A stretch of DNA of 24,000 nucleotides from Nitrospirota bacterium (GTDB lineage: Bacteria > Nitrospirota > Nitrospiria > Nitrospirales > NS-4): NCBI GenBank assembly GCA_963788195.1, contig CAWBGA010000011.1, positions 33,206 to 57,205 on the forward strand. Reading direction: 5' to 3'. Positions 1 through 21,278 of the stretch are shown in pieces; position 1 is the first letter of the stretch, and each line of letters opens with the position of its first letter. The translations under genes were made by a program, and so were the position numbers. The notes beneath the pieces are model-generated. The model was not told the origin of the DNA, ran no database searches, and saw only the letters and a program-made list of their open reading frames with translations.

Positions 1-95
1 CGGAGGAGTCTTTGTCAAGGCGTCCTATCGGGAAGATCCGCTCCGGGTAATCGATCGCCTGGACGATGTTTCCTGGTACGTCAAGTTCGGTGGTA
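1..95 (-). CDS. Pseudouridine synthase (RsuA/RluB/RluF family) catalytic-domain fragment. It continues ORF 81-332 after a 1-nt frame change and runs off the window edge.
   Basis: The reverse strand, read one base out of frame from ORF 81-332, gives (T)TELDVPGNIVQAIDYPERIFPIGRLDKDSS. This is the RLDxxS catalytic-Asp motif of this synthase family. Confidence 0.7.
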
Positions 96-320
96 CGAGA
101 TGACTCCTACAGGTTTGTGATAAGCCAAATAGACTGTTTCGGTGGCTCGCTCCAGAAGCCGACCATCAACGCTGACCACATCGTCATCCGCCACATGGTC
201 TCCGAGCACTGCTTTCCGACCATTCACTAAGACCCGCCCCTCTTCGATCAGGCGGTCCGCGGCCCGCCGCGAGCAATATCCCCGCTCCGTGAAGAACTTA
301 TTGATACGCACTGACTTCAT
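81..320 (-). CDS. S4 RNA-binding domain, N-terminal fragment of the same pseudouridine synthase
   Basis: MKSVRINKFFTERGYCSRRAADRLIEEGRVLVNGRKA... is a typical S4-domain N-terminus of RluF/RsuA-like enzymes. The ORF stops at 81-83 right after KPVGVIS, where family members continue. ATG at 320 is the likely start; GTG at 332 is also in frame. Confidence 0.85.
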   Translation of the reverse strand: MKSVRINKFFTERGYCSRRAADRLIEEGRVLVNGRKAVLGDHVADDDVVSVDGRLLERATETVYLAYHKPVGVISYHRT

Positions 321-341
321 TCCGTAGCTCACCTTGACAGG

Positions 342-968
342 TCAATCAGACGCGGTTCGACAAGCGCCCGACTCAGCCGGCTCATCGTTGAGTTCTTCAT
401 GAACTCCACGCAGCGCTTGGGCTTCTCGTGCAGCCTCCTCACATAAATCCGGTGCCCGCTCGCGAATGAATTCGATCCACCGGTCGAGCTTAATATAAAA
501 GAAGTCATAGGCTTCCTGAGCAGCGCAAGTCCCGCGAAACCAGAATTCGACAAAGTCATCGTGACTGATTCCTCGATCCTTCAATGCGCCGCAAATCTTT
601 GGGAAGAGCTCTTCAAGGTCGCCTCCCCAGTGCAGCAGTTCGTTCGGGAGGTACTCTTCGATGTACTGTCCTAGTCCCTCGCGGTCCAGTTGCGCAGACA
701 ACGGTTCAAGCAGGCTCTCCTGCACAGCCTCTTGTCCCGTGAGCACCCGGGCATATGTTCCGTACAGAGCGCATAACTGTTCAGGGGGCGCCGGCACCGT
801 TGTGCGAAGCGCCCGAATCGTGGGCTCCGGATGGGTACCTCCTACAGACGCCGGCAGTTTAAAATCCTGTTGGAGGCGACCGAATTCTTCCACAATCAAG
901 GGGATGGCCTTAGTATCGACCTCGAGGGCGATGCCTTTTAGCGAGCTCAGTCCCGGATGATCCAACAC
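342..968 (-). CDS. End of the DUF692/MNIO barrel plus a ~160-aa C-terminal extension of unknown function. It reads as a separate ORF but most likely continues 1018-1794.
   Basis: This frame stays open upstream of the GTG at 968 and reads CWIDAHSAPVPGVLWELLRRVLDHPGLSSLKGIALEVDTKAIPLIVEEF. That matches the xIDxH...VWxL...IExD C-terminal signature of DUF692 proteins. No ATG start is available. The remaining ~160 aa match no family I recognise. Confidence 0.6.
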   Translation of the reverse strand: MLDHPGLSSLKGIALEVDTKAIPLIVEEFGRLQQDFKLPASVGGTHPEPTIRALRTTVPAPPEQLCALYGTYARVLTGQEAVQESLLEPLSAQLDREGLGQYIEEYLPNELLHWGGDLEELFPKICGALKDRGISHDDFVEFWFRGTCAAQEAYDFFYIKLDRWIEFIRERAPDLCEEAAREAQALRGVHEELNDEPAESGACRTASD

Positions 969-1017
969 GCGACGCAGCAGCTCCCAAAGAACACCTGGAA
1001 CCGGCGCGCTGTGCGCA

Positions 1018-1794
1018 TCAATCCAACAGGCTCTGGATCCGCACTGCGGCCATGTCGTCCGAGCCCAGGCCGGCCAAATGAATTTGGATCACGCGATGCA
1101 GAGGGAACTCGTCCAGAAACGCGTCCGTAAAGGATTCGATGCTGTCAAAACGACTGTGCTCGCGATACCGCCATACCGTCCACAGATGTCCTATATCGAG
1201 GACAAATCCGCACGGCGCCGCCTCGGCAATGTACGCAAAAAATGCGGCGGGCGACAAGTCCCCGAAAGCTACATAGGTGAGCGGCGGGAGCTCAAGCAGC
1301 AGCAGCGGAGCGTCGTCAAACCCTGGCCTGCCTGTGGATTGTTGCAAGACCTCCTGGCACGCCGCCGCATTCGCGGCCGTCGCTTCGGCAGCCGCAATCG
1401 TGAAGAGCGGCGGCAGATAGGTTCCAAACGAGTATCCTGCGAACTGTTTGCTGGCGCATTCATGATTCACCCACGCGGCACCGATGATCTGTGCATGCCG
1501 CGCCATGCGGCGAGTTTGCTCAATCCACGGATAGCGCGTCCGCATTTCTGGATCGATGAGCCACACGCCTTCCGCATGATAGGCCATGGCGGCTTCTGGA
1601 AGGGCTCGACGAATACGAGCCAGCTCGGTGGACGGCGCCTTGAAGATTTCCAGATATTCTGGTGTGAGACCCGCGTGCCCCAGAACGCCGCACAGCTCCA
1701 CCAGGTCAGGGCTGTAGACATCGACGGAAAGACCGATACCATGCACTGGAACGCGCGCGGCCCGGGCGTAAAACTGGCGATCCCGCTGTTGCAT
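1018..1794 (-). CDS. DUF692 / MbnB-TglH-like multinuclear non-haem iron oxidase (MNIO), first ~258 aa
   Basis: Ordered landmarks of the DUF692 TIM barrel are present: VHGIGLSVD, AYHAEG, WVNHECA, LLLELPP, CGFVLDIGH and IQIHLAG. The ORF ends 15 aa after HLAG, where family members continue with the DxH motif; that motif is found in the adjacent frame. Confidence 0.75.
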   Translation of the reverse strand: MQQRDRQFYARAARVPVHGIGLSVDVYSPDLVELCGVLGHAGLTPEYLEIFKAPSTELARIRRALPEAAMAYHAEGVWLIDPEMRTRYPWIEQTRRMARHAQIIGAAWVNHECASKQFAGYSFGTYLPPLFTIAAAEATAANAAACQEVLQQSTGRPGFDDAPLLLLELPPLTYVAFGDLSPAAFFAYIAEAAPCGFVLDIGHLWTVWRYREHSRFDSIESFTDAFLDEFPLHRVIQIHLAGLGSDDMAAVRIQSLLD

Positions 1795-1800
1795 GGATGA

Positions 1801-1956
1801 TTAGGTGAAGAGCAGCTCGCTGAACTCCGACATAAAACCGTAATACAGGGGCGCAAACACTTTCAGGCTCTCGGGACTCGTCTCCTTAAGCTTCTTGAAG
1901 AACGTCACCTGTTGGCGCGGATCCAGCTGCTCCAGGAGCTTTGACAGATTAGCCAT
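1801..1956 (-). CDS. Small ORF B, 51 aa, not in the ORF track; candidate precursor or leader peptide for the MNIO
   Basis: ATG at 1956-1954, TAA at 1803-1801. Translation: MANLSKLLEQLDPRQQVTFFKKLKETSPESLKVFAPLYYGFMSEFSELLFT. Third codon positions are strongly G/C-biased, like neighbouring genes. It ends 6 nt before the MNIO ATG, and its start overlaps the stop of ORF A (ATGGCTAA). Confidence 0.5.
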   Translation of the reverse strand: MANLSKLLEQLDPRQQVTFFKKLKETSPESLKVFAPLYYGFMSEFSELLFT

Positions 1957-2131
1957 GGAGTAACGCGCCTGAAGGAATGCTCAAAACGTAATGCACCAAG
2001 CGTTCAGTGAACTGTTCAGCCACGTAGGGACTGCTGATGAGGCCCTCGGGGATTTTTCCCGAGGCCAACATTTCATGAAAAGGAATCGCTTGAGCTGCAA
2101 ATGGAGTGGAGGCGAGATGCGAGTCCGACAT
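1949..2131 (-). CDS. Small ORF A, 60 aa, hypothetical; first gene of the small-ORF/MNIO cassette
   Basis: Tracked ORF MSDSHLASTPFAAQAIPFHEMLASGKIPEGLISSPYVAEQFTERLVHYVLSIPSGALLHG. Its composition is protein-like, whereas the overlapping frame (tail of ORF 1981-2496) is R/S/P/C/W-rich. There is no obvious SD sequence; the nearest GGAGG lies ~27 nt upstream. Confidence 0.4.
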   Translation of the reverse strand: MSDSHLASTPFAAQAIPFHEMLASGKIPEGLISSPYVAEQFTERLVHYVLSIPSGALLHG

Positions 2132-2496
2132 GCTGTTTTTGGATTGGATCGAGAGGCCTCCTTCCGTAATCTACAAGAGGGGTCGTCTACAGTCAAGGAT
2201 TCAGTCGCGCCTTCACGTGCCGCAATAGCAGCCCCGATGACGCCGGCATTGCCGCCAAGGCCGGCAAGCGCAATACGGATAGGCGCGAGCTCAGTCGTAT
2301 AGACGTATTCATTGGCGGCCGCTTCCACCAATTTCAAATACGGCTTGCCCAGCGATTCCGAGACACCTCCCCCGAGCACAAAAAGCTCGGGGCTGAGAAT
2401 ATTAAAGAGATTGGCGACCGCGATGCCGAGGTACCAGGCGGAATGTCGCACGGCCTTGATGGCTAGCTTGTCACCGCTGCTCAAAGGCCTTGGCAA
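1981..2496 (-). CDS. ROK-family sugar kinase, C-terminal fragment
   Basis: GDKLAIKAVRHSAWYLGIAVANLFNILSPELFVLGGGVSE...LGGNAGVIGAAIAAREG is the C-terminal half of ROK kinases. Only ~2209-2480 looks family-like. The ~75 codons down to 1981 look non-coding and overlap ORF A, so the true stop is uncertain. Confidence 0.8.
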   Translation of the reverse strand: MPRPLSSGDKLAIKAVRHSAWYLGIAVANLFNILSPELFVLGGGVSESLGKPYLKLVEAAANEYVYTTELAPIRIALAGLGGNAGVIGAAIAAREGATESLTVDDPSCRLRKEASRSNPKTACRTRISPPLHLQLKRFLFMKCWPREKSPRASSAVPTWLNSSLNAWCITF

Positions 2497-3178
2497 GATC
2501 TGAGCTGTTCAGACGTTGGATATTTCCGCCGCGGCTCTTCTGCAAAGACGTTTTATGTCCTTCCTTTGTCCATTTTGCAAGAAGACGTTGGATAGCCGTT
2601 TTGCTCGCCTCTAATTCCAATGTGCCGCGGCGGGGGCGCTTTTCCCGAATCGTCGCATCGAGAATAATATGGCCTATCTCACCGGCATTGCGATTAGCGC
2701 CGATCACGACTTTGCCATCCACGATCACACACCCACCGATACCTGTGCCGACCCACAGGCCGATGACGCTCTGGGCGCGCTGGGCCGCACCGGCCTTGAA
2801 CTCCCCGAAGCAGGCCATGTGCACATCATTATCGACCAGCACCGGCACCCGGTAAGCAGCCTTCAGAATAGAACCCAACGGGTAATTTTTGACGGCGAGA
2901 TTGGCTGTCCGCAGGAGAACCCCTGCGGATGGATCCAAAGGACCAGGGGCGCCCACCCCGATAGCCTTGAGGGCAGATTCAGGAATTCCGGCCTCGGCTA
3001 TCGCCTCCTTGGTGGTCGCCAAAAGCTCCTCGGTCAGCCGGGCATGGCCCGCCTTGAAGGGCGTCGGCCGTTTGCCATGGCCGATGACATTGTTTTTCGC
3101 ATCCACGACAGCTGAGAGGATCTTCGTTCCTCCGATGTCGATGCCCAAAACCAGCGGTCCCTGATAGCCGTGCGCCAT
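2471..3178 (-). CDS. ROK-family sugar kinase (glucokinase-like), N-terminal fragment
   Basis: Motifs present: LVLGIDIGGTKI (DxGGT phosphate-1), VDNDVHMACFGE, GLWVGTGIGGCVIVDGKV and NAGEIGH. The likely start is ATG at 3178 (MAHGYQGPLVLGIDIGG); the tracked ORF extends to 3295. The frame breaks at ~2476 (AKAFEQ | GDKLAIKAV). Confidence 0.85.
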   Translation of the reverse strand: MAHGYQGPLVLGIDIGGTKILSAVVDAKNNVIGHGKRPTPFKAGHARLTEELLATTKEAIAEAGIPESALKAIGVGAPGPLDPSAGVLLRTANLAVKNYPLGSILKAAYRVPVLVDNDVHMACFGEFKAGAAQRAQSVIGLWVGTGIGGCVIVDGKVVIGANRNAGEIGHIILDATIREKRPRRGTLELEASKTAIQRLLAKWTKEGHKTSLQKSRGGNIQRLNSSDLAKAFEQR

Positions 3179-3315
3179 GCGGGTGTCCTTGAAATCGAAT
3201 GTGGCTCTGACGATAGCACAGCCAGTACGAGCCATCAAACCATTGGCATTCGCGTTATTCGTTGTGTAAAATGCCGCGGCCGTTGTCCCGGACACAAAAT
3301 TTCGATGGGAGAACT

Positions 3316-8025: not shown

Positions 8026-8549
8026 AACACCCTCTCAGTTATTGACACCCATTCCACCCGCCCGCCCCGCGCTGCCAAGACAGCCGCTTTTCCCGTGGCA
8101 CCCGCCAACAAGCTTCCATTACACCCAGCCCCCCCGAGCTGCCAAGACGAGCTCCTTATCCGTGGTCCTTTATTTAACCACCGGGATGGTTTATCCGCTC
8201 CAGTAGGATTCCCCGGCTGCAATTCCTCGCCGAGTTGCCTGACTTCACAGACGATGTCACCGGAGGCCAATCGGATATGCACGGCATCGCCAGGCGCCAC
8301 ATCATCGGCCTTTCGTAAGAGCTGCATCTGCGGCCAACGACGCGTGATACTGTAGCCGCGCGCGAGAATAGCTAATGGACTCAGCGCATGAAGCGCTCCA
8401 GCGTTTTGCTGCAAGGACTGTCCCCAGCCCGTCAGGATCGCGCGTACCCGCTGTTCAAGCCGCGTTCGGAGCTGCGGTATCATCGCCAGCCCTTGTTCAA
8501 CCCGGCGGATAGGGCTTCTGAAGAAGGAGTTCCTGGCGTAGGCTGTCAA
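8013..8549 (-). CDS. xseA: Exodeoxyribonuclease VII large subunit, C-terminal fragment
   Basis: ...LHALSPLAILARGYSITR...APGDAVHIRLASGDIVCEV is the XseA C-terminal region. The last ~70 codons (8230-8013) run through a repeat element and look non-coding, so the true stop is uncertain. Confidence 0.75.
   Translation of the reverse strand: MTAYARNSFFRSPIRRVEQGLAMIPQLRTRLEQRVRAILTGWGQSLQQNAGALHALSPLAILARGYSITRRWPQMQLLRKADDVAPGDAVHIRLASGDIVCEVRQLGEELQPGNPTGADKPSRWLNKGPRIRSSSWQLGGAGCNGSLLAGATGKAAVLAARGGRVEWVSITERVLWRP
8050..8165. repeat. Two tandem, imperfect ~49-nt repeat units with a 67-nt period and a CTGCCAAGAC core
   Basis: Unit 1 at 8050-8098 and unit 2 at 8117-8165 match at 37 of 49 positions by my hand alignment. 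The motif order is CATTxCACCC...GCTGCCAAGAC...CCGTGG. The two units fall in different reading frames of ORF 8013-8549. Confidence 0.7.
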
Positions 8550-12870: not shown

Positions 12871-14497
12871 GGCAGCGAACTATACCTCGCTCGCTTAACC
12901 TTGTCAATGTCGACGGATCGGCTTGGGGCGGATAGATTCTTTTGTATTCGCCGTAACTTCGGAGCACTTTCTTCACGTAATTTCTTGTTTCTGTGTAAGG
13001 AATCGACTCTATGAATTCGTCTTGCTCTTTATCCCCTCTTAGTTGCACCCATTTCGAAACGACCTCCGGTCCGGCATTGTATGCGGCAATGACGTAGACC
13101 AAATTATTGGGGAACTTTTCAGCGAGATGCCGGAGGTACCAACTCCCGAGGCGGATGTTGTAGCAGGGTTCAAACAATCGATCTCGGCGAAAAAGTTGCT
13201 GCGAGTCCAATTGCTCTGCAATTTTCTGCCCGGTTTGCGGCATGACCTGCATCAAACCTAGCGCACCGGCGGAAGAGATGGCACTGGGATTGTACGCGCT
13301 CTCCTCTCGAATGATCGCGGTGATTAAATGGGTATCGACTCGCTGGGTCTCGGGGAGCGCCCGGATAATCGAAAAGTATCCACCGGGATAGGCTAGTTCC
13401 CAAAACGTTTTGCCGATACCCGGCCCACCGCGTTCGACAGCCTCCGCGAAAAATGTCCGAACTAACGAAAGCGCGCGGTGATATTCGCCGGCGGAGCCTA
13501 AAAGACTTGCGAGCCAAAGTGCGGTCCCTCGGTCTTGGCCGAGCCGGGGAGTCAGGGTCAACAACTCTTCGGCAGCCTCGCGCTGCCATCCAAGAAGCTG
13601 AAGCTCTTCGGCGCGTTGGTAATGGGCGTCCGTCATGAGATTATTGGCCTGCGAAGCGGACGCGTCAGGCAATGTTATCTGGCTGCCGCTGGTGAGCTCC
13701 CCGCTGCCTTGGTCTACACGCCCGTTGCGCGCCTGTCCTATTTGACAATAATAGGAACGAGGTGCCTCAGTACAAACCAATTGAATCGTATCGAATGCCT
13801 TCTGACGGTCCCCGAGTTTTTCAAGAGTTCGCGCTTTCCAGTAGAGCGCCTGAGCGGCACTCGATCCTGAGGCCTGTGCGGCTCGGGTTTCTTCAAAAGC
13901 AAGAAGGCTTTGGGCATAACGCTTTTCGTTATAATGCAGCCATCCGATCTGCCACAGCGCTTCTGCGGCAGTGGGAGTTGTTGCCGCGGCATCCGCCGCC
14001 TGACGGTAGGTGCTGATGGCCTCCTCGGGCCGGCCGCGATCCAGATACCCTGCAGCCAGCAGTAAGAGAAATTTCGCCTTCAATTCTCCTGAGAGCAGAC
14101 CTGTATTCACGTCCCGAGCCAGAGCATCGAACGGCTCGTCCGCGCGTTGCCGCAAGTACACTCGGGCCAACCAGAGCACCGCCTCCTGTGAGACCGCGCC
14201 AGCACGAGTCCGGATGAGCTCCGCGAAGATCGGCCGGGCTTCAATGTATTGTTTTAGCCGGAACCTGGCGATGCCCAGAGTCAGGAGAGCTTGGGGGCGA
14301 TCCGGCAGAGTGGGACCTTTGAGAGCTTCTTGCAGGACTGGCACCGCAAAGACGTATTGTCCAGCGTCAAAAAACCCCTTTGCCCGCATCCACAGATCCT
14401 TAGAACTGACCTCGGGAATCGTGACGCCTTTGTCCTTCATGGCTTGCAGCCGAAACGCCGCCTCCCCCCCTGCAGTGTCGGAGCTGAATGAATCCAA
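12848..14497 (-). CDS. slt: Soluble lytic murein transglycosylase (Slt70-like), C-terminal fragment: superhelical repeats + SLT domain
   Basis: The SLT catalytic region is IIREESAYNPSAISSAGALGLMQVMPQTG...AAYNAGPEVV. TPR-like repeats lie upstream of it. Confidence 0.88.
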   Translation of the reverse strand: MDSFSSDTAGGEAAFRLQAMKDKGVTIPEVSSKDLWMRAKGFFDAGQYVFAVPVLQEALKGPTLPDRPQALLTLGIARFRLKQYIEARPIFAELIRTRAGAVSQEAVLWLARVYLRQRADEPFDALARDVNTGLLSGELKAKFLLLLAAGYLDRGRPEEAISTYRQAADAAATTPTAAEALWQIGWLHYNEKRYAQSLLAFEETRAAQASGSSAAQALYWKARTLEKLGDRQKAFDTIQLVCTEAPRSYYCQIGQARNGRVDQGSGELTSGSQITLPDASASQANNLMTDAHYQRAEELQLLGWQREAAEELLTLTPRLGQDRGTALWLASLLGSAGEYHRALSLVRTFFAEAVERGGPGIGKTFWELAYPGGYFSIIRALPETQRVDTHLITAIIREESAYNPSAISSAGALGLMQVMPQTGQKIAEQLDSQQLFRRDRLFEPCYNIRLGSWYLRHLAEKFPNNLVYVIAAYNAGPEVVSKWVQLRGDKEQDEFIESIPYTETRNYVKKVLRSYGEYKRIYPPQADPSTLTRLSERGIVRCRGGDLVE

Positions 14498-15111: not shown

Positions 15112-15123
15112 AGATGTTCTAAT

Positions 15124-15180
15124 CTGCCAAGACAGATTTCTTTTTCCCCATTGCACCCGCCCGCCAAACAAAGCTTGCTC
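15124..15180. repeat. Copy of the CTGCCAAGACAG repeat family (distal half of the element)
   Basis: CTGCCAAGACAGATTTCTTTTTCCCCATTGCACCCGCCCGCCAAACAAAGCTTGC parallels 8072-8115 (CTGCCAAGACAGCCGCTTTTCCCGTGGCACCCGCCAACAAGCTTCC). It lies just upstream of the slt start. Confidence 0.65.
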
Positions 15181-15249
15181 GACCCGAAGGCCTGATGATT
15201 ATTTAAGGCCGCCGGGATAGTTTCTCTGCTCTTGATCTTTAGGAGATGC

Positions 15250-15310
15250 CATTTCACCCACCCACCCACCCCAAGCCTGCCGAGACAGGCTTTTGTCCCG
15301 TGGGACAAAC
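15250..15310. repeat. Copy of the same repeat family (proximal half) with (CACC)4 and two hairpins
   Basis: CATTTCACCCACCCACCCACCCCAAGCCTGCCGAGACAGGCTTTTGTCCCGTGGGAC parallels 8050-8100. Hairpins: GCCTG(15275-79)/CAGGC(15286-90) and TTTGTCC(15292-98)/GGACAAA(15303-09). Confidence 0.65.
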
Positions 15311-15389
15311 TCCTTTTCCCCGGCGGCAGTATATCACGCAGTGACCTCTTTTTAGAGGGTTGCCGCGTATCTCATGCTATGTTACTCTC

Positions 15390-21041: not shown

Positions 21042-21278
21042 TTAAGCTTTACCTCGAAGACCCATGATGATAAACGCGATCACCAATCCGTAGAGCGCGA
21101 TCGCCTCGACAAGCGCGAATCCGATCCACATGTACTTGGCCACCCGGGCCTCTGCCTCAGGCTGTCGCGCTACCGCCTCGATCATCTTGCCGAAAATATA
21201 ACCGATCCCGACGCCCGCGCCCGCAAAGCCGGCGGCCGCCAGTCCCATCCCCAAAAACGCAGCAGCTACACTATCCAT
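21042..21278 (-). CDS. atpE: F-type ATP synthase Fo subunit c
   Basis: 78-aa hairpin with the ARQPE loop and the carboxylate in FALVEAIALYGLV. Confidence 0.93.
   Translation of the reverse strand: MDSVAAAFLGMGLAAAGFAGAGVGIGYIFGKMIEAVARQPEAEARVAKYMWIGFALVEAIALYGLVIAFIIMGLRGKA

Follow-up and report, generated by a model that had tools for sequence, protein, structure and literature searches.

A predicted fused MNIO-partner enzyme of the Nitrospirota, probably split in a draft genome by an assembly indel

The heterodimers MbnB-MbnC, TglH-TglI, BufB-BufC and HvfB-HvfC share a TIM barrel of the DUF692 or multinuclear non-haem iron oxidase (MNIO) family. The same barrel is found in the enzyme studied here, the gene for which covers positions 342-1794 on the minus strand of a 24 kb window (the whole stretch of DNA analysed) of a Nitrospirota metagenome-assembled genome (MAG; G000) of 18 contigs and 3.26 Mb. 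As in those systems, a helical accessory module comes directly after the barrel or is fused to it, and where the two are encoded as a split pair they are predicted to bind. Unlike in the heterodimers, the putative partner in the window is fused to the C-terminus of the enzyme via a linker, and the module is all-helical, about 146 aa long and without the beta-sheet part that resembles a RiPP recognition element (RRE; RiPP, ribosomally synthesised and post-translationally modified peptide). Neither sequence searches nor Foldseek revealed a similarity to DUF2063, MbnC or TglI, and no cysteine-rich or other conserved precursor adjoins the gene. The gene is read in two frames in the window, and the combined explanation that we favour, and hold to be likely, is that it is an intact gene for a fused MNIO-partner enzyme in the organism and that the break is an indel of the assembly.

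A fusion of a related kind has been described for MovX, from a methanobactin-like operon of Vibrio, which is an MNIO without a separate partner gene that carries an extra C-terminal domain, reported to be a winged helix-turn-helix (PMC12452194). The present enzyme resembles MovX in having an MNIO barrel and an extra C-terminal domain on a single polypeptide. It differs in that the domain consists of eight helices and no strands, and hence has no winged helix-turn-helix or RRE-like fold; moreover, MovX lies in a RiPP cluster with the precursor MovA, whereas the present gene does not. The same study defined the PME-type 2 partners, which are encoded after MNIO genes, are rich in alpha-helices, lack a DUF2063 signature and range in length from 115 to 276 aa, many of them being too short for an RRE domain; the class is defined by likeness to NGO1945 (3dee) or TglI, either in HHpred or in structure (Microb Genom 2025, PMC12452194). 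Stand-alone homologues of the present domain, of 141-147 aa, fit this class by description, but no structural likeness of the domain to 3dee or TglI was found with Foldseek. The study mentions neither a fused form nor a Nitrospirota family (PMC12452194), and our search of the literature yielded no paper in which MNIO or DUF692 is connected to Nitrospira or to dihydrouridine synthase.

In the window, frame A is a minus-strand open reading frame (ORF) of 258 aa at 1794..1018, which runs through the HLAG motif and 16 further residues to a TGA at 1020-1018; the first-pass annotation had placed this stop correctly but counted 15 residues. Frame B, in the +1 register, is open from 1070 to a stop at 344-342. 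It reads WIDAHSAPVPGV...GIALEVD, continues for about 190 more residues, includes the segment ...WIDAHSAPVPGVLWELLRRVLDHPGLSSLKGIALEVD... and contains no ATG, the earliest listed start being a GTG at 968. The earlier proposal that the barrel continues in this frame, open from about 1070 and without an ATG, is borne out by the ORFs and by the Pfam family PF05114 (MbnB_TglH_ChrH), which matches frame A over profile positions 27-203 (34 bits, cut-off 25) and frame B over positions 206-244, and which also scored above its cut-off in the search of the genome (31.9 bits). Since the two frames match consecutive parts of the profile, they represent one MNIO barrel and not a chance match.

The N-terminal part of the barrel is located in frame A at 1057..1794 (-), with the ATG at 1794-1792, as delimited by PF05114 and by alignment to orthologues. 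Past ...HLAGLGSD, frame A diverges from the orthologues, although it remains open to the TGA. In frame B, agreement with the orthologue begins as early as ...QxGSRxxW, which places the break within about 1044..1056 (-) and narrows the interval 1026-1068 given earlier; a blastn comparison to the same-genus genome G002 indicates one extra base in the window at 1047. This base sits in a poorly conserved, variable loop between HLAG and WIDAH. The end of the barrel follows in frame B at 863..1046 (-), with the WIDAH motif (invariant D259 and H261), the ALEVD motif (E291) and the last helix, identified from the profile match at 206-244, the invariant columns and the secondary structure of the model. 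Next come a poorly conserved linker of about 25 residues at 792..862 (-), with a predicted local distance difference test score (pLDDT) of 52-64 at orthologue residues 320-340 and a length that varies among relatives, and a C-terminal all-helical domain of 146-149 aa at 345..791 (-). We read this domain as a fused MNIO partner module from its 14 invariant columns, the model, stand-alone homologues and predicted binding. The extension had earlier been described as one stretch of about 160 aa in a native product of about 465 aa. Both the extension and the fusion stand, the former as a domain of about 146 aa that is preceded by a linker of about 25 aa, and the latter with a size of about 480 aa for the intact product.

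We compared the window to G002 and G003, two genomes of the same genus, and used the intact G002 orthologue as a proxy for the protein of the window; the structure models are likewise of this orthologue and not of the broken copy. In G002, the gene is an uninterrupted ORF of 480 aa, 81-86% identical to the window, with an identity of 85% in DNA. A six-frame search with the frame-B piece across 40 related genomes gave matches in 17, each inside a single ORF of 482-635 aa, with one TGA inside the matched ORF of G004 as the exception; the family was not found with this query in 11 of 20 genomes of the same family. The earlier annotation had named two separate genes with their own starts in orthologues as an observation that would speak against a fusion, and all close relatives were found to have the fused form in one ORF. 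A database search with the G002 orthologue recovered 1,150 homologues, and those listed were mostly proteins of 470-557 aa from Nitrospirota, named DUF692 or MNIO.

The downstream part of the gene has the signature of a maintained coding sequence. The ratio of nonsynonymous to synonymous substitution rates (dN/dS) relative to G002 amounts to 0.17 for the part that precedes the break and to 0.26 for the part that follows, and frame B is free of stops over 233 codons after the break. The residues H73, E112, E168, D200, H203, H239, D259, H261 and E291 are invariant in 59 sequences, and H111 nearly so. The motifs that hold the invariant histidine, aspartate and glutamate columns are, as judged by eye, all present in the two frames of the window, and this set, which in MNIOs binds two or three irons, may correspond to the metal ligands of MbnB. 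With the barrel of the G002 model, Foldseek first recovers MbnB (7fc0, 7dz9, 7tcr), TglH (8hci) and the DUF692 structure 3bww, with E-values from 8.6e-12 to 5.4e-9 and target TM-scores of 0.70-0.80, and next endonuclease IV. The NCBIfam models for BufB, ApyH and HvfB scored far below their cut-offs of 310, 400 and 360 bits, both with the intact orthologue (37.9, 29.9 and 22.9 bits) and with frame A of the window (27.9, 17.4 and 16 bits).

The C-terminal extension is real and conserved across the Nitrospirota. Its mean identity to the G002 protein is 46%, as compared to 53% for the barrel, and 14 columns are invariant in 61 sequences. The motifs are Y..YA, YLPxE..WGGDL..FP, FWF and YDFF..K, and the invariant positions include Y..YA, YLPxE..WGG, FP, W, YD..K and F. 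In the AlphaFold model of the intact orthologue (pLDDT 89.9, predicted template modelling score 0.91), the barrel extends over residues 1-311 and is followed by a low-confidence linker and by eight helices at 337-479. A model of the C-terminal domain (pLDDT 88) also contains eight helices and no strands, and DSSP assigned only helices and no beta-strands past residue 311 in both models. No NCBIfam family covers the extension. In a feature search of the ESM Atlas, the nearest named clusters were MbnC-like, SCO6045_C and DUF2063, with scores from 0.88 to 0.77 that serve as leads only.

A profile search with the C-terminal domain among 1.84 billion representatives recovered only 86 clusters, among which are stand-alone proteins of 133-161 aa. 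In the four stand-alone forms for which the DNA was checked, a gene of 141-147 aa with its own ATG overlaps by 4 nt with the stop of an MNIO gene of 314-333 aa; these represent four sequence-distinct gene pairs on seven sequenced contigs. The fused and separate forms are thus a classic fusion/fission pair, with the natural split at the linker. For one split pair, the predicted complex scored 0.89, as compared to 0.01 for the best of three controls; 55 of 80 solved complexes and 3 of 110 mismatched pairs also reach this score. In the predicted complex, the conserved helices of the partner rest on MNIO residues 83-88, 120-140 and 166-172, stretches that, in our own reading of the model, correspond to the conserved KQxGYSFGTYLPP and ELPPLTY loops of the subfamily. 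A stand-alone gene after the MNIO gene together with the predicted binding therefore suggests that the extension works as an MNIO partner subunit fused to the enzyme.

The existence of split pairs in other lineages also raises the question of whether the two frames in the window are two natural genes, one for an MNIO and one for a separately translated partner. We consider this to be hardly credible. In the split pairs, a complete barrel of 314-333 aa comes before the division, which falls at the linker, and the partner starts at an ATG of its own. The break in the window instead interrupts the barrel, between HLAG and WIDAH. Frame B lacks an ATG and its first GTG, at 968, is beyond the DxH motif, and all close relatives are fused. 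A break inside the barrel and a downstream frame without an ATG are not what a natural two-gene division would produce.

For the fused enzyme, these data suggest the following arrangement. One gene would give rise to a cytoplasmic MNIO of about 480 aa, consisting of a barrel, a flexible linker and a helical domain of about 146 aa, and the helical domain would do the job of separately encoded partners such as MbnC, TglI and BufC. In the model of the split pair, the conserved Tyr, Trp and FWF motifs of this domain pack onto the KQxGYSFGTYLPP and ELPPLTY loops, from where the domain probably helps to form the substrate site. We would place the contacted loops at the catalytic face of the barrel, given that the invariant glutamate E168, which we take to be a metal ligand, is part of the ELPPLTY loop; the chemistry of the enzyme is presumably that of iron. 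Leaving the substrate aside, the fusion is best read as a new architectural variant of the known two-component MNIO system. The fused and split forms provide clean genetic evidence for a short, all-helical MNIO partner that lacks a Pfam family, and imply that a single polypeptide can combine enzyme and partner. The fused family coexists with ordinary two-gene systems in the phylum, since two Nitrospira genomes, G040 (L067:267-2259) and G129 (L066), also carry a classical pair of MNIO and DUF2063 proteins (HvfBC/BufBC-like); in G000, PF09836 (DUF2063) had no match.

The extra base at about 1047 is probably an uncorrected indel error of the assembly, to judge from comparisons with related sequences. 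One spurious base at this position would create the apparent reading in two frames, and with an assembly indel the organism most likely makes an intact fused enzyme. Relative to G002, the window has further single extra bases at 97, 1967, 2209 and 2477 and additional frame breaks at 8518, 14469 and 21043, so that at least seven genes that are intact in G002 have a changed frame in the window; a separate list of seven single-base frame changes made from the window alone agrees with this comparison. In contigs from the soil sequencing runs X2 and X4 with about 99% identity to the window, one base is missing at 1961/1962, and without it two small ORFs join into a conserved ORF of 109 aa. A more divergent contig of X2, by our own reading of its loose end, continues in frame across the MNIO break with one base fewer.

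The excess of indels extends over the whole genome. We mapped ORFs of at least 250 aa from 345 kb of G003 to G000, and repeated the analysis in the reverse direction. In the forward direction 35 of 175 ORFs were frame-split, and the 49 changes, spread over at least five contigs, fell within 220 kb, whereas in the reverse control only 9 of 182 ORFs were affected, with 11 changes. In-frame stops were symmetric in the two directions (70 versus 63), their absolute counts being confounded by spurious antisense ORFs so that only the symmetry is usable. With frame changes asymmetric and stops symmetric, the excess in G000 consists of indels only. This is as expected of uncorrected indel errors in draft MAGs, where many single-base indels split conserved genes without a matching excess of nonsense changes, and it agrees with the few contigs (18) and the lowered completeness estimate of G000 (82.8%, with a contamination of 5.65%). 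Models for rpoB and rpoC gave no match in the search of the whole genome. Unlike typical errors of this kind, several insertions in the window are located outside homopolymers.

A real and recent mutation at this position, which would make the gene for the MNIO and its partner a pseudogene in this strain, is an unlikely account, although the break is present in the assembly as given and there is no read evidence at the site that contradicts it. The barrel would then be truncated before the metal-ligand motifs WIDAH and ALEVD and the partner domain would be untranslated. The family is dispensable in part of the lineage, as it was not found with the frame-B query in the above-mentioned 11 of 20 genomes. 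Such a mutation sits poorly with the four other single-base insertions in the same 3 kb (one in the RluF gene, one in the gene for the 109-aa protein and two in the ROK kinase gene), with the broken genes elsewhere in the window, with a genome-wide excess confined to indels and with the absence of a neighbouring insertion from near-identical contigs of other samples. The sequence past the break, with its dN/dS of 0.26, no stop and every invariant residue kept, also speaks against it. The first-pass annotation had concluded that, if the indel is real, the enzyme is inactive and its cassette decaying. This account is not upheld, since the indel is one of many in the MAG, purifying selection is visible after the break and the 109-aa ORF is no dedicated member of a cassette; it was built on a split gene from an error-prone draft genome. 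Roughly one in five long genes of this MAG carries an indel, and any finding in it that depends on reading frames needs support from reads.

An intact protein could also be obtained if programmed +1 ribosomal frameshifting or transcriptional slippage bypassed the break, and the downstream frame is indeed fully open and conserved, such that a +1 shift would restore the protein. Inspection by eye of 1044-1056 revealed neither a slippery run or motif nor a start codon, nor was there an in-frame stop at the shift site or a Shine-Dalgarno-like stimulator upstream of it. Furthermore, the break is found in no orthologue, so there is no conserved recoding site, and similar breaks occur in unrelated genes across the genome. 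In the absence of a slippery sequence and of the break in any relative, programmed recoding is very improbable.

Several results count against the combination of an assembly indel and a fused partner. At the break, no near-identical public contig bridging 1040-1056 was found, the best runs containing at most 30% of the words of this region, and the extra base is therefore not directly refuted at the exact site: the evidence comes from relatives and from other samples, not from reads of the source sample, and the extra base would be an error rather than a mutation on these indirect grounds. With five single-base insertions in 3 kb, the stretch around the gene lies above the genome-wide rate of about 0.2 per kb, which points either to a locally poor stretch of the assembly or to something else, and the 11 changes in the reverse control indicate some noise in the method. 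As for the partner, the complex score is the confidence of the prediction model in itself and not a measurement. Residues 300-480 of the orthologue had no Pfam match at E ≤ 10, including none to DUF2063, and a profile search of the PDB gave no sequence relative of the extension. Foldseek against the PDB, a check suggested in the first-pass annotation, returned a best E-value of at least 2.6 and neither MbnC, TglI nor NGO1945. An hhalign comparison of the domain to a DUF2063 profile, built from a BufC/HvfC-like protein of Nitrospira, gave a probability of 0.8% (E 0.074), with low diversity in both alignments, although the alignment is colinear with the N-terminal domain of DUF2063 at positions 5-117. 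Homology of the domain to DUF2063, MbnC or TglI is thus not established, and of the earlier suggestion of a divergent partner of the MbnC/DUF2063/TglI type, the role as a partner is supported by the split genes and the predicted binding, while the homology is not.

Another irregularity was seen in the barrel. One contig of the X1 run joins 1431 to 1636 and skips 204 nt within the MNIO barrel, with a shorter side of 21 letters; it probably derives from another organism or is a chimeric unitig.

The gene order around the enzyme differs among lineages. In the family to which the window belongs, the order is ROK kinase, 109-aa protein, MNIO fusion, RluF and 6-phosphogluconolactonase, the last of which was named by eye. 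Among 80 species-level loci from Nitrospirota, the MNIO fusion is followed by a gene for dihydrouridine synthase (Dus) on the same strand in 70, of which 66 also have Maf, while the arrangement of 109-aa gene, MNIO fusion and RluF was seen in nine. The order MNIO fusion, dus and maf is found in most species loci of Nitrospiraceae (L053-L056, L077-L147), and in most of the 70 loci the start of dus either overlaps with the MNIO stop or closely adjoins it. In L053-L056, this order is followed by a gene for a secreted protein of about 215 aa, and three of the four loci have a divergent CBS/PilZ gene upstream. One of the split systems has a divergent gene for a tRNA U5-methyltransferase beside it and a NUDIX gene after it, and another is located between hemE/hemH and the genes for ribosomal protein S21 and a DEAD-box helicase.

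No conserved small ORF or precursor peptide was identified near the enzyme in the Nitrospirota loci examined, and a RiPP reading thus lacks its defining precursor. The genes that come after two divergent fused homologues (L063, L064) were considered as a second partner or precursor, and turned out to encode an unrelated lipoprotein and a membrane protein. We note, as a doubtful but specific alternative to a RiPP maturase, that the enzyme may be a housekeeping oxidase that acts on RNA, in uridine-related modification of tRNA or rRNA, or on a component of translation. The idea derives from the observation that the neighbours differ by lineage and yet share a theme of RNA uridine modification, with dus (uridine to dihydrouridine) and maf in Nitrospiraceae and rluF (uridine to pseudouridine) in the family of the window. 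It also draws on the tRNA U5-methyltransferase and NUDIX genes beside one split system and on the genes for S21 and the DEAD-box helicase beside another. Endonuclease IV, the next structural match of the barrel after the MNIO proteins and 3bww, is a trinuclear-metal nucleic-acid enzyme within the same fold class. Conserved through the Nitrospirota, including cultured nitrite oxidisers, and placed in housekeeping operons without a precursor peptide, the family is well suited to the question of whether MNIOs act on anything other than RiPP precursors.

The gene for the 109-aa protein is located at 1801..2131 (-), where an extra base at about 1961-1967 leaves two ORFs of 60 and 51 aa in place of one. 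The protein is conserved at 70-90%, nearly always has a length of exactly 109 aa and ends in ...YYGFMSEFS[ED]LLFT in the family of the window; further instances are L149:4637-4966 and L148:4551-4880. The family is specific to the Nitrospirota, with at least 548 clusters, and has no Pfam match. It was considered as a dedicated substrate or precursor of the MNIO. However, 35 of 41 related genomes encode it, among them members of genera and of a family in which the MNIO was not found, and in G038 its gene is 3.6 Mb away from that of the MNIO. Since its distribution is independent of the MNIO, a role of the protein as a dedicated precursor is unlikely; its predicted complex with the enzyme had a score of 0.00, which is uninformative. 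In G025, the gene directly follows genes for a molybdopterin and a 4Fe-4S oxidoreductase, which in our own reading are NxrA/NxrB-like, and in both G025 and G038 a conserved protein of about 122 aa is encoded after it. The 109-aa protein may thus be an accessory protein of nitrite oxidoreductase.

The remaining genes with frame breaks are all on the minus strand. Downstream of the MNIO gene, an RluF-type pseudouridine synthase (S4 and PseudoU_synth_2 domains, assigned by Pfam on the intact G002 orthologue) is located at 1..332, continues beyond the edge of the window and has its extra base at about 97. Upstream, the gene for the ROK-family kinase at 2209..3295 is, by comparison to G002, frame-broken at about 2477, and a second extra base at about 2209 exchanges its stop for a spurious tail that runs to 1981. 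The three others, which are also intact in G002, encode proteins of 500 aa (9705-8208, break at 8518), 763 aa (15126-12851, break at 14469) and 215 aa (21150-20520, break at 21043). Finally, the segments 8048-8165 and 15121-15321 of the window contain a dispersed repeat of about 50-100 nt, present in dozens of copies in G002 and G003 with 72-100% identity, which looks like a family of intergenic repeat elements.

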